This document shows, one piece after another, positions 1,983 to 57,774 of a stretch of DNA of 64,000 nt. The position numbers and the translations under genes are program-made. Positions within the stretch are counted from its first letter, which is position 1, and the number at the start of each line of letters is the position of its first letter. The stretch comes from Gordius albopunctatus (Eukaryota). Under the pieces are notes generated by a model that was not told the DNA's origin, did no database searches, and worked only from the letters and a program-made list of their open reading frames with translations. The stretch covers positions 13,578,001 to 13,642,000 of the forward strand of contig OZ193909.1 of NCBI GenBank assembly GCA_964276515.1. Reading direction: 5' to 3'.

Positions 1983-4383
1983 TAATAAAACTCGGGCCTT
2001 CGGCCCTCGTGGGAAGGGGGAAGGGGAGGAGGGGAAGGAAGGGGGAACTCATCTACACTCCGTATAAATGTATCATATTTGCTATGCAATTTATGGAAAT
2101 ACTTACGTGAATATTGCAAAACGAAGGTTGGAAGCACTAAATAAGTGTATATGCCAAATATCATAAAGGGGGAGAGAGGGAGCGAAGGGGAAGCTTTATG
2201 GTTAGTTAAATTCAACGGGAGTTGTATTACCAAAAAGTCATAATAGCAATGGTAGGAACAGGAACAATCATAATAGTCAAAAAAACGAAAAAAAAATTTT
2301 CGAATCACATTTTGGCCAAAGGTCATTTTTTCCATTGGTCAGCAGCCAGGACACGGTAAAAGTGGATATAAATTCATAATAGTCAAAAAAAAACAAAAAA
2401 AAAGTTTTCGAATCACATTTTGGCCAATGGTTATTTTATTCCATTGGTCAGCAGCCAGCGGACGGCCAAAAAGTCATAATAGCAATGGTAGGAACAGGAA
2501 CAATCATAATAGTCAAAAAAACGAAAAAAAAATTTTCGAATCACATTTTGGCCAAAGGTCATTTTTTCCATTGGTCAGCAGCCAGGACACGGTAAAAGTG
2601 GATATAAATTCATAATAGTCAAAAAAAAACAAAAAAAAAGTTTTCGAATCACATTTTGGCCAATGGTTATTTTATTCCATTGGTCAGCAGCCAGCGGACG
2701 GCCAAAAAGTCATAATAGCAATGGTAGGAACAGGAACAATCATAATAGTCAAAAAAAACGGAAAAAATAATTTCGATTCACATTTTGGCCAATGGTCATT
2801 TTTTTCCATTGGTCAGCAGCCAGGACACGGTAAAAGTGGATATAAATTCATAATGTTCAAAAAAAAACGAAAAAAAAATTTTCGAATCACATTTTGGCCA
2901 ATGGTCATTTTATTCCATTGGTCAGCAGCCAGCGGGCGGCCAAAAAGTCATAATAGCAATGGTAGGAACAGGAACAATCATAATAGTAAAAAAAACGGAA
3001 AAAATAATTTCGATTCACATTTTGGCCAATGGTCATTTTTTTCCATTGGTCAGCAGCCAGGACACGGTAAAAGTGGATATAAATTCATAACAGTCAAAAA
3101 AAAACGAAAAAAAAATTTTCGAATCACATTTTGGCCAATGGTCATTTTATTCCATTGGTCAGCAGCCAGAGGACGGCCAAAAAGTCATAATAGCAATGGT
3201 AGGAACAGGAACAATCATAATATTCAAAAAAAACGAAAAAATAAACTCGGATACACATTTTGGCCAATGGTCATTTTTTTCATTGGTCAGCAGCCAGCGG
3301 ACGGCCAAAAAGTCTTATTATCATTGATAGTAACAAGAACAATCATAAGAGTCAAAAAAAAACTCCGGGATTCTAACCCAAAAACTAGATAAATTGCATA
3401 GCAATTATTAAAAAGTATAGGGTAATTATCAATGTTAACCTATTAAAAAACGAACAAAAAATTTTGATTTATTTGGCCAATGGTAATTTTTTTCAATTAT
3501 CAATGGTAACTTATTCAAAAAGGAAAAACGAAAAATTAGGATTTATTTGGCCAATGTTCATTTTTTCATTGGTCAGTAGCCAGCGGACGGTCAAAAAGTC
3601 ATATTATCAATGGTATTAACAAGAACAAAATATTAAATTAATTAAAAAAATAAAAATTTTGCCCTCTCCGGGATTCGAACCCACATTAAATAGAGGCATA
3701 AGCCTTTGGAGGGGAACAGGGAACCATATAAATAGAGCCATAGGCCCTTGTAGGGGAGGGCATAGGGTAATTATCAATGTTAAACTATTCAAAAACGAAA
3801 AATTAAAAATTTCGATTTATCTGGCAAGTGGTCATTTTTTCATTGGTCAGTAGCCTGCGGACGGTCAAAAATTCATATTATCAATGGTATTAACAAGAAC
3901 AATATATTAATTTAATTTAAAAAAAATAAAAATTTTTGTCCTCTCCGGGTCTCGAACCATCAATTTAGAACGTTCGCAGGGATTCAAACCCACATTAAAT
4001 AGAGGCATAAGCCTTTGGAGGGGAACAGGGAACCATATAAATAGAGCCATAGGCCCTTGTAGGGGACGGCATAGGGTAATTATCAATGTTAAACTATTCA
4101 AAAACGAAAAATTAAAAATTTCGATTTATCTGGCCAGTGGTCATTTTTTCATTGGTCAGTAGCCTGCGGACGGTCAAAAAGTCATATTATCAATGGTATT
4201 AACAAGAAAAAAATATTAATTTAATTTAAAAAAAAAAAAAATTTTGTCCTCTCCGGGTCTCGAACCCGCAACCTCCAGGTCGGGAAGCTGGTGTAAATAA
4301 CTTGGTAGACGGACGGACGGACGGACGGACGGACGGACGGACGGACAACCAAAAACGAGCCCATAAATTGCATAGCAATTAAT
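1983..4383 (-). mobile_element. Helentron-associated non-autonomous element (HINE/DINE-1-like) with expanded central repeats, possibly two tandem or nested copies
   Basis: 18-bp inverted subterminal repeats (TTGCTATGCAATTTATGG 2079-2096 / CCATAAATTGCATAGCAA 4361-4378), (GGAC)n microsatellite near one end, stem-loop CGGGCCTTCGGCCCTCG at the other. An extra end motif occurs at ~3390. Confidence 0.75.
2232..3350. repeat. Tandem array, ~236-bp dimeric unit, ~4.7 copies
   Basis: Unit starts at ~2232, 2468, 2704, 2941 and 3178. Each unit has two related subunits carrying TGGCCAATGG..CCATTGGTCA. Confidence 0.9.
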
Positions 4384-8799: not shown

Positions 8800-11700
8800 A
8801 TGAAAACGGGTTTTGCATCATCAATTACTGCAGATCTTTTTAAACGTCAACATGATAATGTAAGCAAAAGTTCAATTGACTATAATATCTTTTAAAGATA
8901 GAGTACAATTTTCCAAGAAAATATCATGTGTCATCAGATTTTATTCAAAGGCTTGGTTTAGAAAAGGAATTGGAGGTAAAATTCTCATAATTTGTTATGT
9001 AAATTAAATATAGGGACACAATGGCTGTGTAAATTGTTTGGAATGGAATACCACTGGGGATATATTAGCAAGTGGTTCAGATGATTTTCATGTTGCTATA
9101 TGGAATCCTTTAAGCCATCAAAAAATATCTATGTTTAAGACCTCTCATCAGGGCAATATATTTTCAATTAAGGTATTTTAATGCAACCTATTTTTATAGA
9201 AATATTTATATGTGTTACCATATTATTTCTATAATTAAATATAAAATTAGTTCCTTCCATCAAGCAATGATGCTATATTGGTTACAGGAGCTGCCGATAA
9301 CTGTGTATCATTGCAAGATATTGAAAGAGGACAAACATTAACCACCTATAAATGCCATTTAGGCAGGGTCAAAAGATTGGCAACTACACGTGCAGAACCC
9401 TACATGATATGGAGTGTCGGCGAAGATGGTGTTGTTATGTAAATACTTGACCATACAAACTATTATTTATAAACATGTGGTTTTTAGAAAAAGAATTTTG
9501 GTGTTTGTAGAATTTGTATTAGTTTTGTAAATAAATTTATATATAAACCTAAATTTTATATAATATATAGGCAATATGACACACGTGAAGCAATACATCA
9601 GCATGGTGCTTCCTGTCCACACGTTCTTATCAATTTAAATACCTTCATGGGTCCTACAGCAGAAGGCAAATGTCTTAACTTAAATCCTGTAAGACCTGAG
9701 TTAATGGCTGTTGGTGCTAATGATCCTTATGTGCGACTATATGATAGGAGAATGCTAACACTGAGAACTGTTAAGGTAAATTTTGTAAGACAAAATAATC
9801 CAGAACATTCTACAATAATTTTGAGGTCAAATTTTATCATCACATGTGATTTACCAATTAAAAGTTTGAAATAACATATGTATCTTTTATGTATCATTGC
9901 ATGATTTAAAAGATACTAAATTTTTAAGATATCATCAAATTTTTATACTCAAATGTTTTTGATGATTAGTTTATTGTTCAAATGTGTCTAACTATGCATG
10001 ATGTTAACAATTTATTTTTATATGCACAATTAGTTCTATATATCTTTTTAAGATTGATATTAATAAACTTTTTAAAATTATATTTTTAATTTGTTCCATA
10101 TTGTAGTATCCCGATAATTGGAGTTCTTATTCGATTTGGGATAAGCAGAACTTATTTGCACTTCTAGGCACTCAAAACCCATCTCAATTTGACATACCTC
10201 TAAAAGCTTCCAGATATTTTATATCAGGTATATAACGCATACTTTTCAATTTAATTACTTATATTAGACTAGAAAATTTCAAATCTGCTTATTGTAAGAT
10301 ATTTTTTAAAGATTTATTTGTTATTAACAAGTCTTCAAAATTTTCCATATTTTGATGATTTCAAATTGTTGATACCGTGAGAGTTCTTTGTTAATAATGG
10401 CAACTAGGAAAATACAAAATTGAACAAGTTGAGATTTAAGCATCCTGGTTATAGCATTTTTCTTAGCTATTTGACACGCCTTGAATCATAATGCTAAGTC
10501 ATAATAATAACAGATTTAATATAAACAATTTAAGATGATTTGGGAAATTGTTTTTAATGGTACCTGAATTAATAAGTAATTTCACTTTGTGTATCTATTA
10601 TCCAGGGGAGATAGGGAGGGGCATCTCCCCCCCACCCGCTAATATACAAAACTTTTAAAATTCATAAAATTTATGGCTAAAATTAGGAAAAATTTTCATT
10701 ATACCTAATTTTTTTTATTGTTAAGGGTTTTTATATTGAAAATTTTTTTGCCCCCCCCCCCCACCTGGCTACTCTCATGGTTTCTAGTGTCGTATTTAAA
10801 TAGTTTGCTAGGTCAAATACCTTAAACTATTTATTTATATTAATTCCTATGCAATTTATGGGCTCGCTTTTTGTTGTCTGTTGTCCGTCCAACATGTATC
10901 TTAATTGTGCTGGTTCGATACCCGGAGATGGCAAATTTTTCTTTAAATAAATTAATATATTATTCTTGTTAATACCATTGATAATATGACTTTTTGACTG
11001 TGTCCTGGCTACTGACCAATGAAAAAAATGACCATTGGCCAAATTGTGATTCGAAATTTTTTTTTCGTTTTTGAATTGGTATTAATCTACTTTGTATAAT
11101 TAAAATGGATTCTAAGGTCACATCCCTTTCCGAGTTGGGGAGTACCGAAAACGGTACCGTACGCTGGCGTGTACCTACGTGACTTTTTCGCCCGACGGCA
11201 GCGAGCTACTCGCCAACCTGGGCGGCGAGCAAATTTACCTTTTCGACGTATCTTCCCGATCCGTGTACTCTCGTGACGATCGCTCATACGCCCAAATCCT
11301 GACCCTTAGGCCGCCTCACCCAGAGGCCCACTCGCCCTCTCAAAAACCGAAGTAATTTGTGAAAAAAATATTTTTATTCGTTCGTTTTGATTATTATTAA
11401 AATAAATTTATTCTGAAAATTTTTATTTGCGTGAAGGATAATGATGATATATAAACAAGAACTTTTCTAAAATAGTCAGTATACCTTATTAATTAATTCA
11501 CTAATAGTTTTCTTTAAAAAATTTGTTTTGTATTTTTTATTTATAACCAACGCTAATTTTTAACTTACTTGATATATCGGGAGGCACACCCCTCTTTGTT
11601 TTCCCCCTTGCTCATGGTAAGTTTATATTTTTAATAGATGAGCGGTTTCATATTAAAAAATATTATATTATATCCTTCAAATCACTCTCAAACAATAAAA

Positions 11701-14700
11701 AAAAATTTTGGATTGAGGCAGGCTTGAACTTCGTACTAATTTTTCTCAACGTTTCCATTATATATATGCATGTGGATAGGATTACTTTATTTTCGGGTTG
11801 TTAGGTGATTTGTATTTTATTCAATTGCCTCCTCCTTCCCTTTAGTTAGCCCCATTACAGCAATATCGTAGATAATGATTAAGGTGAGGGAGAACTAGTG
11901 TTGTGAAAATTGCACTTCTGTGCAAAATGTAATATGTGCAAAATGTAATATAGGCAAGGGTTAGGGTTAGATTTAGTGATTTATTTGATAATATGTATTT
12001 ATTTATAAAATAGTATTATACATTTTGATATAACTTATTTTGTTTCAATTAACAATTATAGTATCCTTTTATTACGTAGTTTTTTAGTACATATTACATG
12101 CGTATGAATATGCGTGAAAACCGGTCTCAATTTCTAAAATACGAACGTCTAAACATAAACAAACAGACTAAGGGCAAAGGGGGAGGATTATTAATTAGAA
12201 TTTTTAATTCGCTAGTTAACTGTGGTCCTCTTCAAATATTTTCGCAGCCCGGGTAGCTTAAATCATTTTACACACAGTTTTGCAGTGGCTAATCTAATAT
12301 ATTTACAATAATATTGAAACTTAAATTTTTGTAATATATCTATTCATTTTTGAGTGCGATTGTGCAACCTCGAGTATAAGATACGTATATCAAGCCTTGA
12401 CCGACATCTTAATTGGGCCAACAAGTTTCATTAATTTCCTTTTTTGTTTGAGACGTTTCGGAGACTATACCAAATATAAGATTTTAGAACAGGCATGATA
12501 CCAGTCTATAGTTTTTGGATAAATTTTTGAAAGGGGTGTAAACCTTTAAACACTATGACTTCATTGAATATTATATTACGTTTCTAGAGGTAGCATGAAT
12601 AGTAAAAAAAGTAGTTTAATTAAACCCCACGGATTTTAGGCTTTCTTTCAATTCTCGGAACGAGGATGGCCTCTGTGATAAAGTCAATCTCACGAACAAG
12701 AAACGCAAAACGGAGAACGGCTTCTTACCTCACCCTAATATTGACTGCCCCGAAGGTAACGTCTAGCGCACATATATTTTATGCGCACACATTTCCCCCT
12801 TTATATGTGCCTTTTTTTGTAATGTTTGTCATATAATCTAGTTGGTGATTGTGCTTACTTTTGACACTTAACACCGTAATGCAGTGCATAAAACGGTTTG
12901 AATCTTTCATTAAGACATACAACACGGTATGACCTAATATTTTGTTCGTTTTCTTTTAATTTTGTGTTTGGCGATTTCGTCTACTAGGGGACTTTAAAAT
13001 TTTGAAAAAAAAAATCCTAAATTGGGATTAAGTCGTGCAGCGAGATTTATAACGATATGATAGAAATTATTTTTGCGAACAAAATATTCACAGAATTTAT
13101 TTTGACAGCAATCATCGTTTGGAATATTACAGAGATCTATATTGTATATGTCTAGACTAAGTCTCTGCTATTAAATTACGATTTCTGGTATTGAGCTCCA
13201 CTTAATAACTTGATTTTTACATATAGACACGATAGATTTATTGCCGTATTATATTTCCTGCCCTGGTAAATTTCATTAGTTTAAGGACGAATGACAAAAA
13301 GCATCATGGGCGTGAACAGGATTTGAATCAGAGGGGGTCAATAATAATTTAGGGAGGGGCAAAATTATAATTTCTTGAAATTTAGTTATAATTGTATTAA
13401 ATTTTAAAGTTTTTTTTTATTTGGAGGGGGGGCAGTTGCCCCTCTCTGCCTCCCCCTGGCTACGCCCATGAAGAGTGTTAAACGCAAATATTTCCATTAA
13501 TAGCATTTTTTAATTTGTTTTTATGCTTTCCGCACAAAAGATACAAATAAAAAACTCAATACTTCTTTTTATGGTTTTTTTTTAAATGCAATGTTGTTAG
13601 TCATAAAATTGCATTTCGATTTCTTTCAATCCTATAGTTTCGAAAACTAGCCCAAAAGCTAAGGCATTAACCAACGGGCGCAAAGGCACCGAGGGCGAAA
13701 AACGATACGAAGCCCTGGTTCGGGACCTATTTGAATTGACCGTGACTAACACTCCACCCTTCGACACAGCTGATCGTCCTGAGCATCCATCCATGGGAGT
13801 GGGGGTAGGCGGTCAGATTTTAACGCCCCTAGCGGAATTACTGAAGAGCAGGGCTAATCAGATATTCGAACAAAACAAATACACAGAAGCTATAGCGCTT
13901 TACAATAAAGCCATAGCCTTGAGCCCAAAATCAGCGCTTCTGTTGGGCAATAGGGCAGCTGCCCTCATGAAACGACACTGGTAATCAATTAAAAAGCTAC
14001 GATACTGTTTTACAGGATTTTCTTTGTTGTTGGTAGAGAATTGTAAAGCCATTTTTTTAACCCGAACCCGACCCGAAAGCATTTTAAAATTCTCAACCCG
14101 AAATTGAATCGACCCGGAAGAATTTCTAAATTTTCAACCCTACCCGATGCCGGGTCGGGTTTCGGGTCACCCATGCAGTTCCCTAATTGTTGTTGGTAAT
14201 ATTTTTAAACTTAACATCGCGTGGTTTTAATGGTCCGGGCATGAGGCGAGTATTTTCCATATGGATGCATTAATAATAATTGATTGCAAATAAAACAACA
14301 GCCAGCGCTTGAATATTATTTTAAGCCAAGAAAGTTTTAATTGGGTCTCCGCACATTTAATTTAAGGAACTTAAAGCTAAATTGCTTTTGGAAATTTAGA
14401 CTGTTTTCCGTGATTCCAACGTAGTTAAATTTGACCATTAAAATTCCATCTTTTGGGGCGGCTTTAAAGGGACGGCGACGTATACGCGGCTATGAGGGAT
14501 TGCCTAAGGGCCTTGGAGTTAGACCCGGGTCATTTGAAAGCTCGTTTCAGGATGATCCGTTGCTTGTTGCACTTGGATAAAGTGGCCGAGGCTACCGCTT
14601 GTCTCGAACGTTTCAAGCAAAAATTTCCCGAATACGCCGCTAGCGGAGCTTGCAAAAGTTTGGAAAGCGAAATTGCTTACAAAGAATTCCACGATAAACA

Positions 14701-17700
14701 AGGGCCGGACTCCCCGAAAAACGGTAAATTGAAGAATTCATTACTGAAAATTTGGACATCTTGATTAAAATTAGGAGTTTTTTTTGGGCTCTTATATTGA
14801 AGGTGAAGTTATTTATAATGGCTCTGAAGAAAATTTTTGATCGAACCTGGCATGGGCGGCGTAGCTAGCATTGGAGGGAAGGGCAAAATGATCATTTTTT
14901 TGAAATTTTAGCCATAATTTCGATAAATTTCAACAAATTTTTGGATTTAGAGGGCTCTCTGTCCCGCCCCCTGGCTACGCCCATGAAACCAGGGATATTG
15001 TGTGCCATTAATATAAATTTAAACACCAAAATGCTGCAACAGGGATTAATGGCTTAACAATTGAGCCTATTAAAAGTGGAACTGGATAAAATTAATCAGG
15101 ACCCCGCTATCTAATAATTCATTTAAAAAATATCTATTGAAATTATAGTTTGCTAATATGATCTTGGTGGGTTTGAAATAAGATGTCCTTTTTTGTTGCC
15201 TTAAACTACAAATTTATAAAGTAAATGTTTCAAAAATAATTAATTACACCGGCCAACAAAAGTTATTAACCAAAAAAGGTTAACCGACTTTTATAGAGTT
15301 TTTTGGGTGAACACGGAGATTTTTATACCTCAAGCTTAAAAAAAGGTTAAAATTTGCGAAAATTGGCATTTTGCCCCTTTTTGAAATAATAAGCTTAAAC
15401 TAGAACATCTAAGTTATAAAACCAACTTAAAGCTCGTTGATTAATTTTTGGTATTTTATTGAAAATTATAATTATCTCTACAACTATTACTATACGCTTT
15501 AGACACCTGCTAAGTTGTTGAAACGATTGTCTACCCGTACGGTCCACCCGTAACTAAGACTTTAGTACGTGGACTTGAGACATACTACAACCATGCCAAG
15601 GCCCGTTTTTAATGCACCCTGGCCCGTTAGCCCCCCTCCCCCCGCCCAATTATAAAAAAAATTTTTGCAACATTAAATATGTAATTTTAATGGTATAATG
15701 AATATTGTGTCTCGAGCTATTAGATCTTTTTATTTGTTATACAAATTTTTTCTTGCATAAACGGGGTTGTAACCAAGATTTGGTCGACGTTTATCACTCG
15801 TTAAATCAATCGAATGCTAAGCGTTTAAGATTTTCACGTTATCTTTCACCGTCAAAATTGCCTTTATTTAATCACATTGGCATATTCATTGGTTTTAGAT
15901 AGCGCGACATTTGAATCCACTTCCCTGAGGCCCATGTCTCAAACTCTCGTCGATTTCTTGCGCGACACTGATCCTATCGATGAACTGTTTTTAAATGTAC
16001 CGAGCGGTGAAAACACCATACCCACGGCACAGTCTGAACCCTTGTAAGCCTTTTTTTTTATTAATTTATATCATGTTTCACTCATAATATTTATCCACTT
16101 TTTAGTCGAAAAATTGAAACTAATATAAAATTGGCTGCTAGTCATGACATCGCAAACATGTAGTCAAATATATTCCCTATATTTAAGCTTGAGCATCTTC
16201 AATTACAAGTTGATATTTCTTTATGGTCATACCCGGAATTAATGGTTTCTTCAATACCTAAATGCTCTTTTGCACATCTTTTATTTCATTTTCGCACAAT
16301 TATCATTTAATATAATCCCGTTTAACCGTCATTTTGAAAGGAAAATCAACTATAGATGGCGCTTAAACGAAAATAGTTCTTTCATTGGATTAGTGTTATT
16401 TATTGACTAATTCAATCAGATTATAAGCTAACGATTTGCAATTGGATTGCTAAATAAATCGAAAGTATATATAGATTACCAATATAAAATTAAAATAGTA
16501 CCTTTTCCTTGACACTTTCAAAGTGGCGGGTTAAATGTGGAACACTTTTTTAAAGGGAATGAGCAGTCTATTAGTCTTTCATCACGTAAGATCATATCCA
16601 ACATACATTAATTTCTTGGACAGATTGACCCTTACTCTAATTATACCTTTGTAAATTGCCACTTTTAATTATCCACGCACTTTGTTCTTAAAAATGCCTT
16701 AGTTTGGAGCAAAACAGTTCGGAAACGCGCGTCCCCATGGCCCGTCGTTTGCACTGGGAACTGAGCGCGGGCTTAGGGGCTGCAGATGACGATTTGGAAG
16801 CTGATAACCACGATGGGAACGTCTCGTACACGACCCTTAATTTTAGCGATAATTCTTCCCTCTCCTTCAACACTTACGCAGAGAGGCCATCCGACCCCGC
16901 TGCTCTTAACTCCAAATTTAGGATACCCACGAAGGAGAGAGTGTGGAAAGGGGGCAGTCCAGACTATTCGCGTCGGTTTTGTGGGCATTGCAACACTACC
17001 ACCGATATTAAGGAAGCCAACTTTTTTGGCAGGTATGGCCTTAGTCATGCATGATGAATTAGGGAGGGACAACTATCACCCCCCCCCCCCTTATGGATCC
17101 TAAAATTATTATTATTTATAAAAGTCATTATTTTGCCCCCCCCCCGTTCCCCACTAATTTTAATCCAGGCTAAATTCAATGCTGTCTTTCCATAAAAAAT
17201 TAACGTAATTTGTACAAAAACTATTATATCATATGGGAACATATGAACTGTATTGGAAACTTTTAAGGTCCGCTATCTTATTAAATATGTAATTTAACAT
17301 GGAAAATTCCTTAAATTTAACAGCTGTTCGCACAAAAACGTTATTCAAGATTTAGTATGTATTTAAGTTATTACTAAGCTTTCGTGCAATGAGTCTCACG
17401 ACTTAATTATGTTGAACCCCATTCGATCTTTGTTTTTTAAAGTTCTTTGGATCAAGTAACACGCATGTATTTTGTATTATTGTTGTGGCGCAGCGATGGT
17501 CAATACATAGTGGCCGGATCGGATGACGGATACTTTTTCGTGTGGGACCGTGCTACCACCAATATATGCAGAGTTTTGTTAGCCGACGATTCTATCGTCA
17601 ACTGCCTCCAACCCCACCCCTCCACTTGCTTGCTCGCGACCAGCGGGATCGACCCCGTCATACGCTTGTGGAGCCCCCGACCCGAGGTTATATGCACATA

Positions 17701-18665
17701 AATATATTTTCTGTATGAATTACAAGGAATTATGCTTGGAGTTTTTTTGTAGTAAAATCGAAATGCTTACATTACACTGTATTAGGAATCACGTACTTTT
17801 AATTGTTAAGAAACAATAATTCAAAAAATATTTTTATATCATGTAGTAGCAATCATTTTTTGTTGATCCTCAGATGTCGTCTCGTTTTATAATTTAAATC
17901 TCTTTAAATTAGGAAAAATTGGAAAAAAAGATAGTGAATCACGAGAAAGTTTATGAAAAGCTTTCTTGGCAATAAGAATTCAGTATTTATAAAATAAATG
18001 TGAAAAAGGGATGGCGTTATATTAATGTAATGTTTAAGGTAGGGTAGATTGGGGTTTTGGGATCTCTTTTTAAAAAAACACAACTACTTTTAAACGTCTG
18101 TTATTATGCATTATATGTTCAGGCTTCTTAATTAGATAAATAAATATTAGGATGAAACAAAAGTGACTTTATGCGTTTGTTTTAATTTAAGATAGTGATG
18201 CGTTGGGGTAAAGTGAGCAATATTGATATTGTGGAGGGGGGAAAGGCAAAGAATTCTTAATTTATAACCATCAACGTTTTTACGTTTCCCATTGAGACTT
18301 AAAGCTTAGCCCCTACAATAACCTAATTATTTATTACAGCTTAGGTCCTCCTTTTATTTTAAAGCCCTAAAATTTCTTTCAATTCTTTTTTTTCCTCGCA
18401 GAATAACAAGGAAGAACGCGAGATCGCAGATTCAAACGACGCAGCGGCTGCCAATCAAAAACGTATGAACGCTGACCCTATAGAAGTCATGCTTATGAAC
18501 ATGGGTTATCGCGTTAACAATCCAACCACCACAACTACCTCTTCAACCAATGCCCCCGAATCATCTGATACTACCCAAGCTAGTCGCCATGGAATTAGCC
18601 CAAGAGCGGGTCTGTTTAGGGGCCCCGACATCTCATCAACTACCGTCCATTGCAGGACTAACTAA
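8800..18665 (+). CDS. WDTC1: WD and tetratricopeptide repeats protein 1 (adipose/DCAF9), 14 exons, ~896 aa
   Basis: Manual splice model, all GT-AG with consistent phases: 8800-8859, 8898-8975, 9014-9172, 9251-9438, 9571-9775, 10107-10227, 11117-11351, 12640-12755, 13638-13980, 14470-14723, 15899-16043, 16703-17032, 17494-17686, 18402-18665 (2691 nt). WDTC1 motifs: RLGLEKELEGHNGCVNCLEWN, TYVTFSPDGSELLANLGGEQIYLFD, TPR GNRAAALMKRHWDGD, FCGHCNTTTDIKEANFFG, ANQKRMNADPIEVMLMNMGYR. Exons 8 and 11 rest only on splice sites and frame continuity. Confidence 0.95.
10838..11075 (+). mobile_element. Partial HINE-like copy in WDTC1 intron 6
   Basis: TTCCTATGCAATTTATGGGCTCGC..GTCCGTCC start and internal repeat, reverse complement of the 1983-4383 family. 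Confidence 0.75.
13306..13470. mobile_element. Short hAT-type MITE (CATGGGCGTAGCC family)
   Basis: Termini CATGGGCGT...ACGCCCATG; related copies at ~14850-14985, 22757-22919, 37693-37845, 48079-48185 and 48927-49063. Confidence 0.75.
14034..14184. mobile_element. Short MITE with ACCCG subterminal repeats in WDTC1 intron 9
   Basis: Imperfect TIR TAGAGAATTG/CAGTTCCCTA, flanked by TTGTTGTTGG-like duplicated sequence. Confidence 0.55.
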
Positions 18666-21482: not shown

Positions 21483-21897
21483 TTATATACTCGGGCCTTC
21501 GGCCCTCGTTAGAAGGGGGAATGACTCATCCATACTCCGTATAAACGTAGCATATTTGCTATGCAATTTATGGGCGATCAAAGGTAGGAAGGGGCGAAAA
21601 TGCCTATAGTGGGGTATAAAATGCAAAATGATTAGTTAATTATTAATTTATACAAATATTTAGAAAGTCAAATGGTATTAACAAGAACAATATATTAATT
21701 TAATTTAAAAAAAATAAAAACGAAAAGTCATATTATCAATGGTATTAACAAGAACAAAATATTAATTTAATTTAAAAATTTTTTTGTCCTCTCCGGGGAT
21801 TGAACCAGCAAGTCAGATAGTTGAAAGACGGTGTAAAAACGTTGGAGAACGGACGGACAACAAAAAGCGAGCCCATAAATTGCATAGCAATTAATAA
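21483..21897 (-). mobile_element. Short complete HINE-like copy
   Basis: Stem-loop CTCGGGCCTTCGGCCCTCG, inverted subterminal repeats 21556-21575 / 21871-21890, GGAC repeat. Confidence 0.8.
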
Positions 21898-23099: not shown

Positions 23100-23586
23100 C
23101 AATTTGGCCAATGGTCATTTTTTCATTGGTCAGTAGCCAGCGGACGGCCAAAAAGTCCTATTATCAATAATATTAACAAGAACAAGATATTAATTTAATT
23201 TAAAAAAAATTTTGCCCTCTTTGGGGATTGAACCAGCAATTAAGAATTTGCCCTCGCCGGGATTCGAACCCACATCAGTAGAGGCATAGGCCCTTCTAGG
23301 GGAGGCAAAGGGTAATTATCAATGTTAACATAATATCCCAATTCAAAAACGAAAAAAAAATTCGATTTATACTTTGGCCAATGGTCATTTTTTCATTGGT
23401 CAGTAGTCAGCGGACGGCCAAAAAGTCACATCATCAATGGTATTAACAAGAACAATATATTAATTTAATTTAAAAAAAAATAAAAATTTTGCCCTCTCCG
23501 GGATTTGAACCAGCAATTAAGAATTTGCCCTCGCCGGGATTCGAACCCACATTTACAGGCATAAGCCTTTGTAGGGGAACAGGGAC
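23100..23586 (-). repeat. Internal tandem repeats of the HINE-like family
   Basis: Two ~270-bp units homologous to 3540-4260. Confidence 0.75.
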
Positions 23587-24045
23587 ATTCAATAATTATC
23601 CTTTGTTATTTATAAAAAAAATGAATAAAATAAACATTTTAGTCAATACAAATTTTTGTTTATCGTTACCAACTGAGTCAATTTTAATGACTCTAAAAGC
23701 CCAAGTGATAGATTACAAATTAAACAATTTAAATGTTAAACACCTCTTTAATTCAAATTAATTGGTTACTTAATTGAATGTGCTAAGATTTTTACCTAAT
23801 TAGGCAAACTAATTGAAATCCCTTATGCAAATGGACATGCTTATTGTGTAAAAAAATAGTGTCATTTGTATGAAGTTCAAAATTATCATATTAATCTTTT
23901 CAATTGGATTTGATATATTTGTCTATATGTCTGATATTCTCATTCAAACAGTTGAGACTGAAACTTCTCCATCAAAATTTTTCACTTTACGTAACAAATT
24001 TTTATGATGTACTTAATAAATTATTTGAATTCATATTGTTCTTAG

Positions 24046-24317: not shown

Positions 24318-24988
24318 TTAAGATTTATATCTAAGGTGTGATAAAGTTTTGATATAGGATGTATTTTTATAATTTTCATGTAATAGCAACCATTGTTTTA
24401 TATCATTGCCACATGAATAATTTCCTAATTTATTATTGGTTGAATAATTTAAAATACCTAATGCACCATTCTTTTTAATAACTCTATGGCATGGAACAAT
24501 CAATGGTAAGGGATTGTTTCTCATTGCACTGCCAACTACTCTTGATGCTGTAGGGTTAGATGCTAACACAGCTAATTTACAGTATGATATTGTTTTCCCA
24601 TAAGGGACATTTTGTAACAAGGTCTTCCATGTGTGCATATAGAATTGGGCTTAGCACAATATAAATTGACTAGTTAAAAAATAATACATTTTTTACAATG
24701 ATCCCAACAAATAAATTTTTCGGAAAAGATTGGTGCATAACCCTTTTCAAAATAAGCCTTAAACCAGTTCAGTGTATATACAATAGGCTCTATATTTAAA
24801 TCAATTTGATTTTTATCAACTCTAAAAAAAGTGAATTAAAATTTGAAGTCTTACATGGCTGTATGAAAAATATTGGGTTTGGCTATATTAATTGTGTGTA
24901 GTCCTTTAGAACAATATTTTATTTCAAATTCCAAAGGATGGTCAAAAACATGAAATTTAAAAACGGTAGATTTATGCATATTAATCAT
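24318..24988 (-). CDS. MGMT: Methylated-DNA--protein-cysteine methyltransferase (O6-alkylguanine alkyltransferase), 4 exons, ~188 aa
   Basis: Exons 24988-24855, 24821-24688, 24649-24458, 24424-24318; introns 33, 38 and 33 nt. Motifs VPYGKTISY, ASRVVGSAMRNNP, active site PCHRV, GNYSCG..IKQWLLLHE; N-terminal CSKGLHTI and WFKAYF. Alternative start ATG at 24979. Confidence 0.93.
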
Positions 24989-49592: not shown

Positions 49593-50117
49593 CTATGCAT
49601 TACAGAATTAAAAAAAGTGAGTTTTGTAAGCTGTAAATTTTATAATCCCCTTAAAGTTATTTTTTGTAAATATTGTAAGAACACCAATATTTGTTGTGAT
49701 ATAAATTATATTTTATAGAAATTTTATTTTTTAATTTAATAGTGAAATAAGAGTTTAAAATGATTTCAGTTTAAGTATTAATAAGATATCTACATTATTA
49801 CCTGTGAATCAAATATTAACTATAATTTATATGCCATTTAGTGCTATTTTTAAGACACTAATATGGTATAAATTTATCCCTATCCTTTTCAGCATGTGGC
49901 TAAAAAATAATAACAGACAAATAACATTTTTGCTATATTTAAAGCTCATCAGTTTGCCATTGTTAATTTTCTAGTCACATACTAATCAATATAGTTATAT
50001 ATATAAGGCCAAATTAGATTGAGTTCACTTTTATTCCATGCCTTAATATATAGGCTACCAACTATAATTTCTAATTTTTAAACAAACTTGACAAGAATTT
50101 TATTGATATGGTACTAA

Positions 50118-51143
50118 TTAAAACACATTGCTCTCAAACTTAAGACACTTGACAACATTCGCATTTGGCCCATTGTGTTTCCTCTTTTTACCCTTTTCAA
50201 TATTTTCTTCCAGAATGAAGGCAGGTAAAGGTAGCTTGTAAGAAAGTGTAGGGAGTGGTTGTGAATAAAAATATGCACTTTTAAGGCATTGACTTGAATC
50301 CCATCTTTGTAATGGGTTATACATAAACATAAACTCTAAAATCTCCAACAAACTATCATCTGCAGCTGTAAATATTTCTCTAAAATGTATTTTGTCAAAC
50401 ACCTTAAATGATATATAGTCTGGAAGTTGAGTTATCCCTGGCCATATTTCTTCATTAGGTGTGCCAAGTGTTTCAAATATTTTTGATAATTGCTCTAAAT
50501 CAGAATCACCAGGAAAAAATGGTACTCTGAGGAGTAATTCGGCTAATATACAGGCCATGGCCCATATGTCAATGCTTGTTCCATATATTTTTGCACCAAA
50601 TAAAAGTTCAGGTGGACGATACCAACGAGTTACTACCTGATTTGTATAAATTCTATTGGGGGAGCCAAAATACTTTGCTAAACCCAAATCTCCCAATTTT
50701 AAAATTCCTTGTTTATTTACCAATAGATTGTTTGGCTTTATATCTCTATGAAGGATCCAATTTTTGTGCAAGTATTCTAGGCCATTCAATGCCATTATCA
50801 TGTAGGACTTTATGTTAGCTTGAGTTAAAACTAGAGATGTGTCTTTAATTATAACTTCAAGGTCTGTGTCCATAAAATCAAAGACTAGAGATATTTTGCT
50901 GTTGTGATATAAAGTATCCTTTAAATATATTAGATTGGCATGGTTTAGTTCATGCAATAGCTTTATTTCTCTAAGTGCAGTACGATTAATACCATCAACA
51001 ATATCAGATTTCATTCCAATTTTAATTTTTTTTATTGCAACTATTTCTTGGGTTAATAAATTTTTTGCTTTATATACAGTGGCGAATTGTCCTTCCCCTA
51101 AAAACTTGATGTTTTCGTAATTAGTATAGTTTTTGTTATGCAT
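50118..51143 (-). CDS. CDK7: Cyclin-dependent kinase 7 (CAK/TFIIH kinase), intronless CDS, 341 aa
   Basis: [27 protein letters not shown] (CDK7-specific NRTALRE helix), [11 protein letters not shown]-loop [23 protein letters not shown] shortly after the stop. Confidence 0.97.
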
Positions 51144-51149
51144 ATTAAT

Positions 51150-51431
51150 CTAATTTTATTCCCAAGTTTGGCGACACATAGGGCAATGGGGATTAATTTG
51201 TTGGGAATCAAGCCATTTCATAATACAATGCGAATGAAAACAGTGATTGCATTTGCCCCATAAAATTGGGCAATTATCGCCGGGTATAGTACAATTAGGA
51301 CAAGTATTTTCAAAAGCCATTCGACATATGCCACAGTTGTCATCATTAGCAATCCATTTCCAATTAGCGACAGAGTTCCACGATTTAATTTTAATTTTCA
51401 TTAATTATTAATGAAAAGTTGAAATCCATAC
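51150..51431 (-). promoter_or_regulatory. Putative 282-nt 5'UTR intron of CDK7 enclosing the whole ANAPC11 ORF
   Basis: Minus strand: TTG|gtatgg ... APC11 ORF ... GAATAAAATTAG|ATTAATATG(CDK7). No AG between the donor and this acceptor. Confidence 0.65.
51156..51401 (-). CDS. ANAPC11: Anaphase-promoting complex subunit 11 (RING-H2), 81 aa
   Basis: MKIKIKSWNSVANWKW..DDNCGICRMAF...CP.C..PGDNCPILWGKCNHCFHSHCIMKWL...CPMCRQTW matches the APC11 consensus and lacks the N-terminal extension of RBX1. Confidence 0.96.
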   Translation of the reverse strand: MKIKIKSWNSVANWKWIANDDNCGICRMAFENTCPNCTIPGDNCPILWGKCNHCFHSHCIMKWLDSQQINPHCPMCRQTWE

Positions 51432-52607
51432 CAAGCGATAAAGTGAAATACTAAATAAACAATCATGGAAAGTAGTAGCAAGGTTATGTAATATACAAAA
51501 AAACTAATTTCTTCAATAATTTGTATCTATAGCATGAATGGAATCATCTAACGAGATTGACTATAGGAATGAAGACAATTCGATACAAATTAAATTTTCA
51601 CACCCCATGGGACACGTGACCGCGCCCTATATAAACCAAATTCACACCACCGCCATTATTCGCTCGATTTTTTCCTACGCATATAATATTATGTTCCCTT
51701 GTTTATACGCATTCTGCCCCCTTCTTACCTTTGCGCTACGATTTACCCTAAATTTTCGCTTTTATAATACTTATACATATGATATAGAGTAGAAACAATA
51801 AACGCCTCTGGTAGAACGATAACGAAACCAGGGGATCTGGGAGAAGGGCTTAACCCTTCCTCCAGATTAATTACTTTTGTTGCCCACAATAAACGAAAGC
51901 AATTTAAATTTGCCATGTAATTTTGTGTTAATAATTTTTCCGTCTTCCTAAGATATTAAATACGGTAAGTTATTGACTACAAAAATTTTTTTAAAGATAT
52001 AATTATTTTTTATAGGCGTACCATGGGCTTGAAGCTTATCCTAATACACTATAGATGGATGCTGGAGAATCCGGAGATGTCATATTCAATAGCTCTTAGA
52101 CAGAGAATACCTTATATGAAAAACCATGTGGCTATTGCCCCCAACAGATGCGCATATGCATCAGACTCTCCCTACATTGCCTTTTAGCCAATAGGAGTAA
52201 ATTCGGCACAATTCATTTTTCCAAACTGGCCTTAAAATAGCCAACGCACCATCGTTCTGAGAGACCCTTGACTCTTTTTTGGAAGGAATGGGACCCGACC
52301 TCTCAGCTCTTATCACATAGCAAAATGGTCTACCACTTAAATAAGATTTTATATTTAGACATTTTCGCATCATTTAAGCAAAATTAAGTAAGCCCCCAAG
52401 AGCTTAGTTAGTGCAATCTAAGGTTGAGCCCCTTCTAACGCCAAATGGCGCATCAGGCCACGTTAGTGATAACGTGTAAGTATGCTGTAAAAAAATGATT
52501 AACATACAGTGTAATTATGACATGTAAATATGTAATACCTATTGACTTGAAAGTAATGTAAAGCCTTTAATGATAAGGTCGTAAATTAATGGTGCGTGAG
52601 GAGATCC

Positions 52608-53310
52608 TTACTGGGGGAGCCGCAATATTTTGTTCTTTGAGAAGTCTTTCCAACGTTTCCTGTCTTGCATGATGGGCAGCAATGAATTCCAATCATGACT
52701 CATTGTTTGGACATCGCGGAACACCTTGTAAAGCCAGCTGCCATTGCATTTGCGACCTTTTAGCTGGGGTAGACACCAGAACAGGGAAGATAGAAAGTAG
52801 TTGGTTCCCTTCCTCCGCACTTGATGTGCCAAAAAACCCCATTTTCTCGCGAGTAGAATATTTTTAATTGGAGGGATTTCGCAACGCACCCATAGATCCT
52901 CGTTGGTTATTCTCAACAGATAAAATATCCGGCAAGCGATACGTAGCATTTTATTAAGACTGACTTGCAGCTTCTTTAAGCTAGGAGCCTTCAGCGACCA
53001 AGATTCGCAACCGTATAGGAGGATTGGTAGGATCGTGACTTTGAAAATCCTCAAACGCGTCTGGAGCGTCAGTTGACGTGAGCGCCATATCACCGAGCAA
53101 GAGTAGAATTTGACCATGGTCCGACGGAGCTTCGATTCGGCATCCGCTTCGGCGTAGGTATCTGGAGTAAGCTCCACTCCCAAATATCGGACTTTTCGAG
53201 ATGCATTTATTACGTTGTTGTTGATTACCAGAGTAGAGTTCGAAGGATCGTTTATGCAGATCATTGATCATTTGTCTGGGTTTATAAACAGTCCTGCTTT
53301 AAGCAAAATT
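52608..53310 (-). mobile_element. Non-LTR retrotransposon 3' fragment (RT thumb / C-terminal region)
   Basis: VRYLGV, RLRIFKVTILPILLYGCESWSL and DRKRWK are typical of RTE-like LINE C-termini. Confidence 0.75.
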
Positions 53311-53774
53311 AAAATGGCCTAACCCTCCCAGAGGACCGCAAGACGGTACCAGGGCCTCCTTCCATCTAAAATATTGTCTCATTGTCGCCTGCTCAGGAAC
53401 TTTTGAAACTGGCGCATCAGCCGTTTCAAGGAAGTAGGCAGGTTGACATATTTTTAAATATTTTCCTAGATTTTTGCTTCAGCAAAAAATTGGCATCCTA
53501 ATCGTAAAATAGAATTTAATATCTCTTGCTTTTATCTTGAGGATAATACTTTCAATGCTTGATTTAATGAATTTTATTTATCATTTTTTTATTAATTGCT
53601 ATTCTATTTTATATCTTTTTTGTTTTTGTAATTTTTATAACGTCCTATAAAATTGAAGTGGTTAAAATTTCTTATTGAGAGGCGTCATATATTCAAATTG
53701 AGATAAAGTATTTACATTGTGTAATTACGCGGGTGAATAATAATTCCCGTAAATTATGTGTATTCAAATTATGG

Positions 53775-56700
53775 TAATTTGAAAGGCACCATAGAATCTC
53801 TCTATACTACAATTCGAGCAGCCATTTTATATCGTACAACCAGGTCAGAGTCAGCAAGGTTCCGCGAGCTGCTTACTAACGTAGAGTTGGGTGACCGTAA
53901 GCCCTCCCAAATTTACAGACACATGAAGGCACTCCTCGGTACAGCTAAAATGGACGAGGCTATTCTGAAACAGCTGTGGCTAGACAAACTGGACAGAAAT
54001 ATGACTAGCATTTTAGCCATTTGCGCAGGTGACCAGACTCTATCTAAACTAGCTGAATCAGCCGATAGGATCGCCGAGACATACCGCACCCCTCAATTAT
54101 CAAATATCATTCCAAAAGCGAACAATGAATTGGAAATACTCCGGGGCATGGTTGAAAAACTCAATCTGAGCATTGACACACTACGCCAGCATCTCGACCA
54201 GCAAAAACGACTCGTAACAATGGACAGAATTTCGCCTAGGCGTTCCCAGTCACCTTCAAGACCCCCCACTGATGTTACCCCGACTGGTTCTGGTACCATC
54301 AGCAATTCAGGCACAAAAGCTCCAAATGTCAATCAACGTGTAACTACACTATGGCCGCAGTGTAAAACCATTCGGCCAGCCAGGAGCAGCGACGCCTTGT
54401 CTAGGCCTATCAAAGAGTCGTTTTTTTTTAGTTTTGGATAAATCTACTGGAATGCGTCTCCTTATAGACACTGGGGCCGAAATTAGTGTTATACCGCCTC
54501 CGCCCAACCATCATCTTAAACCCTCATATCTACCTGCAAGCAGCCAACACCATCACCATCAAGACTTATGGTCAAAAATCTTTGGCACTGGATCTTGGTT
54601 TGTGCAGGAATTTCCAATGTGTATTCACAGTTGCCGACATGAAAACGCCGATCATCGGGGCGGATTTCTTAAGCAACTTCAATCTCCTAGTAGATATCCG
54701 ACGACAGTGTCTGCTGAACCCCATCACCGCATTAAAATCGTATGGCCATTCCACTAACTCGAGTTTGTATAATGTACAACTCGCTATTAAGGTAGACTCG
54801 CCTGATTTTTTAAACTTATTAAGAGAATTCCCTAAAATTTATTCCCCCCTAATTACAAGGTTAACGTAAAGCATCACGTCGTCCATCACATAAACACCCA
54901 AGGCCCACCTGCTTACGCCAAGCCTAGGCGCCTAGACCCCGTTAAACGGAAAATAGCTAAACAAGAGTTTACGCATATGCTTGAATTGAGTATAATCCAA
55001 CCTTCGGACAGTCCCTAGGCATCCCCTCCGCACATGGTCCTAAAGAAAGTACCCGGATATTGGCGACCATGCGGTGATTACAGAGCCCTTAACACTCAAA
55101 TCGTACCAGATCAATATCCTCTCCCACACCTCCACGACTTTTCACTCAACTTGGCGGCACAACAATCTACAGCAAGATAGAACCACCAAATTCCCGTCGC
55201 CCCCGAAGACATCAAAAAGACAGCAATTACCACACCCTTCGGGCTATTCAAATATTCACGTATGCCTTTTGGGCTACGCAAATCCGCTCAAACCTTCCAA
55301 CGTTTCATCGATCAAGCCTTTCGAGGCCTGAACTTCACATTTGCTTATCTAGATGATTAATTGCAAGCTCATCAATCACCCAACACTTACACAATCTCCG
55401 TCAAGTTTTCCAACGCCTACGTGAGTTCGATCTCAAGATTAACGTAGGCAAGTGTGAATGGGGACAGCCCGCAATTAACTTCCTAGGCCACCATGTATCA
55501 CCACAAGGTCTAACTCCGGTACCAGATAAAATCTCAACTATCAAAAGTTTTGCCACCCCAACAACCATGACGCAACTTCGTCGCTTCATAGGTATGGTAA
55601 CTTTTTACCGACGTTTTATACCTAGCTGCGCACTCCACCTCCAGCCATTAACTGATCTGCTCAATGACTCAAAAGGACCCCTCGTTTTAACACAAGACGC
55701 ACAGGATGCATTCGACAAGACTAAGGAAACGCTTGATGAGATCACGACCCTGAATCACCTTGTAGAGAGCGCCACTCTTTCATTAACAACCGACGCGTCA
55801 AACACCGCCATTGGCGCCGTCCTGCACCAAACATTAAATGGAGAGAGTAGCCCCCTGTCATTTTTTTCGCTTAAATTAAATACGACTCAGACGCGCTACA
55901 GCACATTTGGTAGAGAATTACTTGCTATTTGCCTCTCTATAAAACATTATCGACATGTTTTAGAAGCCCGAGACTTCACGATTTACACAGATCACAAGCC
56001 TCTGACCTACACTTTAACTAGTAAGTCTGACAAATACTCACCACGGGAAATACGACAGCTAGATTACATATCACAATTTACATCCGACATCCAATTCATC
56101 AATGGTAAGACAAATATCGTGGCGGACGCTCTTTCGCGAACAGAGATAGATTCCATACAACTTACAAATACCACAATAACGGAAAGGTTAGCTATGTCAC
56201 AACAACGGGAACAATACTCAACCGAAGAGCTGGGATCCCTTAAACTGGAACAATGTTCAATTCCAGGTACGAGTTAAACCCTTACCTGCGATACATCCAC
56301 CACAATTCCAAGACCCTTAGTACCCAAGAGCCTACGACGCGAAGTTCTTGAGCACCTACATGGTCTGTCGCATCCAGCCTCCCGGCCAACATTAAAACTG
56401 ATTTCCAAACATTTCGTCTGGCCTGGAATGAATAAAGAGGTGCGAGATTGGACGAAACATTGCGTTTCATGCCAAAAATGCAAGGTAAATAGATACACCA
56501 TCACAGTTTCAGCCACTTTCGCGGAGCCTGGCGCAAGATTCAGTCATGTTCACGTGGACCTCGTGGGCCCATTACCCCTTTCTAATGAACACATTTTCAC
56601 CGCAGTCGATCGTTTTACCCGGTGGCCCGTGGCAATCCCAATCAACGATGCATCAGCTGAAACTGTAGCCCAAACATTTTTGACGCATTGGATAGCTAAC

Positions 56701-57774
56701 TACGGAGTACCCACTACATTAACCACAGACCGAGGCCCCCAATTCCAATCTGCCCTGTTACCATTATATAACCACTACAGCTTACCATCCACAAGCCAAT
56801 GGTATGGTAGAGCGATTTTATCGACAGCTAAAAAGTTCGATTATGACAAAAGGAGACACTACCAATTGGTCTGATCGAATTCCCCTTGTACTCCTGGGTA
56901 TCCGAAGCACCGTCAAGGAAGACTTATCCTGTTCGAGCGCTGAACTGGTATACGGCACCTCTTTGAGACTAACAGGAGATTTTTTGGTTCGCTTCACACC
57001 CACCAGATTATCAAATATCAAACAACAGATTACCAACGATTTGGTTACAGCTACTCACGTATTTGTAAAGATTGACCGGCATCGGAAAGCTTTAGTCCCT
57101 CCGTACGAAGGTCCTTACAAGGTAATCGAAAGACATTCTAAATATTTCGTCATAGACCACAATGGAAAAAAAGACACCATTTCATTTGATTGTTTAAAGC
57201 CAGCCTTCCTTGAACCGAGATCCGATTTCCCCAAATCCATGTCCCTCCCCTCCAAGCCGATCTACGTTAAGCAAACCTACCATACAACCCGCTGTGTTCA
57301 CTCCTCCCAAAGCAAGCAATTCTTCTTCTCCATCAACCAAAATCACTCCTACACCAATTACCACCAAGTCCGGCCGTCATGTTCATTGGCCCAAGAAGTT
57401 TTTCAATTTTATGTAACACTCCACGTCTACGAAGGGGACTATTTGTAGGAATTAAAATGCGAATTGAGAATATAAATGTAGCAGATTGTCAACTCCAGGT
57501 GTTTTATCATTGGCATGATTTTCCGCAATCCATCGCTTCATCCAAACATTGCGGCGTCATTTCTTATTGAATCAATAATCCTTCGCTCTACTAATTATAT
57601 CCCATCATTATTATTCTGTATTCCGATATTGTAATCATTCGCTCTATCAATTATAATCGACCATTATTCTTCAAATCCCTTTTACCAATGGCTAAAAATC
57701 ATCATCATTCTTTATTATTCCTTATCCGCGTGAATAAAATATAAGTTCTACTTTTCAGTGTAAACACACCTATA
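53775..57774 (+). mobile_element. Degraded Ty3/gypsy retrotransposon (gag, protease, RT, RNase H, integrase, 3' LTR; 5' LTR missing)
   Basis: gag ELGDRKPSQ; protease [32 protein letters not shown]; RNase H TTDASNTAIGAVL, YTDHKPL, NIVADALSR; integrase HVHVDLVGPLP, TDRGPQF; PPT GAAGGGGA at 57431; LTR ~57444-57774. Confidence 0.93.

Follow-up and report, generated by a model that had tools for sequence, protein, structure and literature searches.

The minus strand of the window, the 64-kb stretch of Gordius albopunctatus DNA analyzed here, contains a 299-nt run without a single AG dinucleotide, and this run takes in the complete coding sequence (CDS) of an APC11 gene lying directly upstream of a CDK7 gene. 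The run is real, and its lack of AG is statistically notable under every codon model that we tried. From the DNA, we consider it about an even chance that alternative cis-splicing of one precursor RNA yields either the APC11 or the CDK7 message, in which case the APC11 CDS would be an AG exclusion zone of ~300 nt and form the 3' part of an intron.

The APC11 and CDK7 gene pair

The elements of the locus are as follows.

50118..51143, minus strand: CDK7 CDS, 341 aa, intronless; kinase domain, best relatives named CDK7
51156..51401, minus strand: APC11 CDS, 81 aa, intronless; Pfam zf-ANAPC11, E value 8.9e-33
51152..51450, minus strand: AG-free stretch, 299 nt
51155..51160, minus strand: AATAAA, candidate poly(A) signal by sequence; overlaps the APC11 stop, 3 nt before the AG of candidate acceptor A2

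The APC11 CDS is intact at 246 nt, and in a profile search its product scored 112.6 bits against zf-ANAPC11 (curated cut-off, 25), which places it in the APC11 family. It is 60 to 70% identical to seven aligned orthologs, with 41 invariant columns and a conserved Cys/His pattern, and its C terminus is ~3 residues shorter than theirs. The downstream product has a kinase domain and its best relatives are named CDK7, which identifies it as such. Its closest full-length relative is from Gordionus (68%), with which it pairs at 100/100 in a tree of 28 rows, making a nematomorph source likely; the top row of the search was a duplicated Meloidogyne record (56%). The CDK7 ATG, at 51143, lies 12 nt past the APC11 stop and the two open reading frames (ORFs) share a frame. 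An APC11-CDK7 readthrough fusion is ruled out, as two in-frame stops (TAA and TAG) stand between them. One 1543-nt contig from two public DNA runs spans 50005-51547 at single-copy depth with no joint within the gene pair; these runs cover repeats and intergenic sequence, as DNA reads would, and confirm the sequence, and they may come from the source sample itself.

Several other features of these genes and their surroundings were seen. Both are intronless (50118-51401), as against 11 introns in the WDTC1-like gene of the window, and interruptions near codons 6-7 or 46 are frequent among APC11 orthologs, which suggests intron loss or retroposition. The Gordionus CDK7 record carries an insertion of ~17 residues after GTPN that is absent from the other sequences shown and may be a mini intron retained in the annotation. 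The AATAAA over the APC11 stop may be a by-product of the codons GAA TAA. Upstream of the locus are a frameshifted element at 53737-57448 (plus strand) and a reverse-transcriptase fragment at 52608-53267 (minus strand), which by motifs in their translations we take to be Ty3/gypsy-like and LINE-like, respectively.

Extent and probability of the AG-free run

On the plus strand, the CTs that flank the run are at 51150 and 51451, with none between, and the run is made up of a 49-nt leader, the 246-nt APC11 CDS, and 4 nt past the stop. Only a 237-nt tandem repeat at 2230-3297 gives a longer CT gap in the window. Direct counting thus bears out the original prediction that the minus strand has no AG at 51152-51450, the whole APC11 CDS included, and its description of codon choice proved equally accurate: Lys is AAA (6/6), Glu GAA (2/2), Gln CAA (3/3), Arg CGN (2/2), and Ser TCN (4/4), and none of the 13 codons that precede a G-starting codon ends in A. 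Adjacent CDK7, by contrast, does use AG freely (59 in 1026 nt).

The number of AGs to be expected had been put at well over ten. Base composition does give 14.2 in the CDS, but expectations that take the protein into account are only 6.3 to 8.6, depending on the reference gene. The exact probability of zero AG in the APC11 CDS is 1.2e-5 with CDK7 codon usage, 7e-5 with that of the LRR gene, 9e-5 with four CDS pooled, and 2.3e-4 with MGMT usage alone. The most conservative value, 5e-4, grants APC11 its own preference for T-ending codons (16/30 versus 283/885; P = 0.018). The 54 noncoding nucleotides contribute an extra factor of ~0.11. Shuffling APC11's own synonymous codons, a check proposed along with the original prediction, gave zero AG in 30% of shuffles, so that avoidance at codon junctions alone is not significant. 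The absence of AG is the product of many modest codon choices.

Runs of this length were also predicted to be uncommon in coding sequence, and this is what we found in the four other CDS of the window (5,772 nt): their longest AG gap is 94 nt, and a minimum of 7 AGs was counted over 1,600 overlapping 246-nt windows. When all 16 dinucleotides were scanned across the window, four gaps had a local expectation of at least 11, these being the tandem repeat, a CpG gap, a GT gap (11.1), and the AG gap (15.9). AG is the only dinucleotide absent from the run, and the next deficits are modest (CA, 12 versus 17.8 expected; GA, 12 versus 15.0). Plus-strand AG-free runs of 213 nt (51573-51786) and 247 nt (57497-57744) lie in G-poor noncoding sequence with a low local expectation. 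The tandem arrays of the window, with 237- and 309-nt units, occupy 2230-4266, and related units occur near 10900, 21700, and 23100-23600.

APC11 loci elsewhere

The original prediction proposed a comparison with orthologs, and this came out in its favor: of 42 APC11 loci in metagenome contigs, none is AG-free, so the lack of AG is not a family trait. The 36 loci with at least 200 aligned nucleotides have 4 to 20 AGs each, the lowest being represented by an AT-rich ortholog, L038, with only 4 in 234 nt. This control is weaker than the number of loci implies: several are nearly the same sequence, small introns fall within some of the aligned stretches, and G+C is higher in most of them than in this gene. 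CDK7 adjoins APC11 in none of the 42 loci, many of them on short contigs and none shown to be nematomorph, and no APC11-CDK7 fusion was present among 155 APC11 protein matches; there is thus no conservation evidence for the pairing.

Other tight pairings were observed. Downstream of APC11 on the same strand, three contigs carry an ORF for MBTPS1 (site-1 protease; L001:75-3510, L002:64-1213, and L003:58-3441) at spacings of 19, 106, and 57 nt, respectively, both ORFs being uninterrupted, which makes this a second recurring tight APC11 pairing. The APC11 of these three contigs has an N-terminal extension and contains 7, 20, and 21 AGs versus 10.0, 16.6, and 19.2 expected. Its stop is TAG in L001 and L003, so splicing could operate there too. 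In a further set (L005:747-1064, L039:1262-1618, and P0226), APC11 is followed by an ORF opening with a GLPPLP motif. P0226 is APC11 fused to a LURAP-family domain and aligns weakly to the L005 ORF (E value, 1e-6), and we take the ORF in L005 and P0226 to be LURAP/FAM89-like.

Introns of this species

Thirteen reference introns were annotated by hand, 11 in a WDTC1-like gene (8800-18665, plus strand; 12 exons, 780 codons) and 2, of 33 and 47 nt, in MGMT (24318-24988, minus strand), both genes being presumed to be such from sequence motifs. The check on these introns consists of the open frame (780 and 197 codons with no internal stop) and those motifs; the proteins returned when a WDTC1 reference was sought were five unrelated TPR proteins. 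The introns are 33 to 3410 nt long with loose splice signals, and at the 3' ends of 12 of them the AG-free zones are 20 to 79 nt.

According to the original prediction, codon choice ensures that the first AG after the donor is the one just before CDK7. Such a rule does not hold in this species, as introns of 132, 331, 461, and 489 nt in the neighboring WDTC1-like gene contain 4, 9, 14, and 19 internal AGs. Because ordinary introns tolerate internal AGs, a further ingredient is needed, which could be a distant branch point, competing acceptors, or trans-splicing.

The WDTC1-like gene is itself uneven, with its first six exons A+T-rich and interrupted by several mini introns, while later exons look richer in G+C and CpG. 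CpG ratios are 0.16 in MGMT and 0.26 in CDK7 versus ~1 in the LRR and WDTC1-like genes, and the low values may reflect gene-body methylation.

Candidate splice signals

All candidate sites around APC11 are predicted (donors, 51728 and 51431; acceptors, 51451 and 51150).

51723..51731, minus strand: candidate donor D1, AAG/GTAAGA at 51728; 278 nt to A1, 579 nt to A2
51451..51503, minus strand: candidate acceptor A1 (predicted), G at 51451, 49 nt before the APC11 ATG; AG-free, 50% U stretch of ~50 nt ahead of it
51426..51434, minus strand: candidate donor D2, TTG/GTATGG at 51431; 282-nt intron to A2
51400..51450, minus strand: U-rich (49%) leader at the 5' end of the AG-free zone; function putative
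51150..51159, minus strand: candidate acceptor A2 (predicted), AG at 51151-51150, 7 nt before the CDK7 ATG

The last 10 nt of A2 are those of WDTC1-like intron 3. Intron-end matches of this length occur at 24 of the 6107 AGs in the window, and 13 of the 24 are the introns themselves. U makes up 28% of the 50 nt upstream of A2, less than in any of the 13 introns (34 to 52%). Two TTAAT branch-point-like motifs, at 51411 and 51404, stand in the leader just ahead of the APC11 ATG, and a further TTAAT, conventional in position, lies 46 nt before A2, one of eight YTRAY motifs in 51140-51560. D1 scores 10.0, a value reached by 8 of 5943 GT sites, and sits within a 30-nt stretch that resembles 21579-21608 (E value, 0.02) and has raised read depth; it may belong to a dispersed repeat. 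D2 scores 4.8, reached by 531 of the 5943 sites, and its hexamer GTATGG also opens WDTC1-like intron 10. An acceptor matrix built from the 13 introns had little power (leave-one-out scores, -5.3 to 5.8; A2, 1.1; median exonic AG, 0.9). Synonymous AGs introduced in silico scored at least as high as A2 at 13 of 23 positions, with a matrix that is too weak for use.

The AG-free zone contains twelve ATGs, a number that makes ribosome scanning through unspliced RNA to CDK7 implausible. One out-of-frame ATG, at 51429 within the D2 region, opens a 12-codon frame over the APC11 start that would affect any APC11 mRNA starting above 51429, and this frame is poorly explained by every model considered here.

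A proposed splicing model for the locus

Under alternative cis-splicing, a noncoding first exon ending at D1 or D2 would be joined to A1, or the D2 intron would be kept, to yield an APC11 mRNA that ends at the AATAAA over its own stop. The same first exon joined instead to A2 would yield CDK7 mRNA, with the APC11 CDS lying within a 5' leader intron. As coding bars a U-rich tract beside A2, use of this acceptor would depend on a branch point and a U-rich tract lying close to the zone's 5' end. Any intervening AG would then be used, which would cut APC11 and leave out-of-frame ATGs before CDK7, spoiling both products, and we propose that synonymous codons have therefore been purged of AG.

This model is favored by the significance of the gap under all codon models together with the lack of AG-free loci among the 42 orthologs, by the match of A2 to a used acceptor of the species over 10 nt, by the twelve ATGs that stand in the way of scanning to CDK7 on an unspliced RNA, and by the top-scoring donor 278 nt above A1. 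The distant branch point in particular is favored by the contrast between A2, with the least U-rich upstream 50 nt, and the 5' end of the zone, which is 49% U with two TTAAT motifs; the TTAAT 46 nt before A2 means that a distant branch point is not required. The model is weakened by the possible repeat origin of D1, the commonness of the D2 score, the many AGs of ordinary introns, and the general preference of APC11 for T-ending codons. Selection against cryptic 3' splice sites, as originally predicted, is still the most economical explanation for a gap that is significant, specific to AG, and closed by an acceptor-like AG, once the "first AG" wording is dropped. As for the further claim that the gap independently supports dual coding and intron function, the statistic does support such a function but does not demonstrate it, and the donor has two candidates (51431 and 51728).

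Comparison with known systems

Nested genes that share a first exon have a precedent in the Caenorhabditis elegans cholinergic locus, in which unc-17 (VAChT) lies inside intron 1 of cha-1 (ChAT) and a 5' exon is common to both (PMC3875643). The arrangement here would be alike in having a gene nested in an intron, with splicing that in our case is predicted. The nested gene of the cholinergic locus comes with exons, a 3' UTR, and spacing of its own, and the two products of the locus belong to one pathway; the APC11 CDS, in contrast, ends 3 nt before the acceptor, leaves no room for an intronic 3' UTR, and is AG-free.

The second precedent is the distant branch point, of which a long AG-free zone with the branch point and pyrimidine tract toward its 5' end is the hallmark (PMC1431707). 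Zones of 150 to 440 nt are described there for PTB exon 11 and alpha-tropomyosin exon 3, and about half of AG exclusion zones of at least 100 nt are put down to chance. Like these, the present zone is AG-free up to its (predicted) acceptor, exceeding 150 nt at 299 nt, and has U-rich (49%) and branch-point-like signals (two TTAAT motifs) toward its 5' end, yet there is also a YTRAY motif 46 nt before A2. The PTB and alpha-tropomyosin zones, as that source presents them, are intronic sequence, whereas in our case a complete conserved CDS fills this role; the word "coding" has no occurrence in the main text of PMC1431707. Among the matches listed in our literature search, judged by title or the start of the abstract, no AG-free CDS was described. 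The locus plausibly combines the workings of a nested gene of the cholinergic type with a long AG exclusion zone, and on DNA evidence it is a candidate member of that class.

Small upstream cistrons are also known. Drosophila lemming pairs lmgA, which is Apc11, with lmgB in an intronless locus where 92 nt separate the ORFs and the second is dispensable (PMC3372440), and moi/tgs1 is a dicistronic gene with a small upstream ORF (PMC7605716). In both, as in the present locus, the first of two cistrons is a small ORF, which in lemming is likewise Apc11. The present locus differs from lmg in its partner, CDK7, and its 12-nt spacer. Our literature search, in which most subscription journals were outside coverage, found no report of a bicistronic Cdk7 and Apc11.

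Alternative explanations

It is also conceivable, if unlikely, that the gap arose by chance on top of a general preference for T-ending codons, with AG irrelevant and CDK7 made from a start site inside or just after APC11 or by re-initiation on a plain two-ORF mRNA. Our scan spanned very many windows and 16 dinucleotides, the APC11 protein needs only ~7 AGs, the conservative probability is 5e-4, and L038 is itself down to 4 AGs in 234 nt. Elsewhere, too, APC11 is closely followed by another ORF with no loss of AG (MBTPS1 in L001 to L003, and the LURAP/FAM89-like ORF in L005 and P0226), and lmg is an intronless dicistronic Apc11 locus with lmgB downstream (PMC3372440). However, the second ORF of lmg is described in the same source as having no detectable translation, whereas CDK7 is a conserved kinase that must be made. 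Chance would, moreover, have to place the gap on a gene 12 nt from the next ATG and end it at an AG that matches a used acceptor, with AG the sole dinucleotide absent and other deficits modest.

We regard as improbable, and less likely than chance, a spacer-less two-gene operon in which a spliced leader (SL) is trans-spliced at A1 and A2, 3'-end formation at the AATAAA competes with A2, and the APC11 CDS serves as the CDK7 outron. Nematomorphs are usually placed as sister to nematodes. The AATAAA (51160-51155), 3 nt before the acceptor AG (51151-51150), and the 7-nt CDK7 leader fit such an operon, with the reservation that this poly(A) signal may be a codon by-product. Spacer-less operons of Ciona and of the C. 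elegans SL1-type class, in which the upstream 3' end is the downstream acceptor, the AATAAA is canonical, and the products are mutually exclusive (PMC1488885), likewise have an AATAAA adjoining the acceptor, predicted in our case. In the known examples, as far as the consulted parts of that paper describe them, it is a 3' UTR and not a CDS that abuts the acceptor, and SL trans-splicing is needed. Cis donors are present upstream of APC11, and Rfam gave no SL RNA family match in the 64-kb window, which as a single window is weak evidence. Our literature search, partly by title and with most subscription journals outside its coverage, found no report of trans-splicing or a spliced leader in nematomorphs among the matches listed, and the consulted parts of PMC7668243 do not mention them.

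Very improbable, in our view, is that AG was lost as a side effect of some other constraint, such as U-rich or structural selection or an overlapping CDK7 promoter. TT is in excess in the run (24 versus 16.0 expected), the CpG ratio of the region is 0.83 versus 0.26 in CDK7, and an A+T-only 10-bp hairpin at 51395-51417 covers the APC11 ATG, its center just ahead of it. This hairpin is, however, one of four such in the window, RNA folding of the region was no better than that of shuffles (z = -0.55), and the region had no match in Rfam. We know of no promoter or structural constraint that removes AG specifically.

Implications

Returning to alternative cis-splicing, its fullest form is that the complete CDS of an essential, conserved gene is the AG exclusion zone of the next gene's acceptor, that splicing has purged its AG-bearing synonymous codons, and that acceptor choice sets the APC11:CDK7 ratio. 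We advance this tentatively, with slightly less than even confidence. If true, the locus would be a clean natural case of splice-site scanning dictating codon choice over a whole CDS, and it would tie two central regulators of the cell cycle, the RING subunit of the APC/C (APC11) and the CDK-activating kinase (CDK7), to one splicing switch. It would also allow a cheap genome screen, in which an AG-free CDS ending beside another ATG would point to hidden dual coding/intron genes or trans-spliced operons. Should A1 and A2 instead be trans-splice sites, they would be the first sign of spliced-leader operons in Nematomorpha, for which we found no earlier report.
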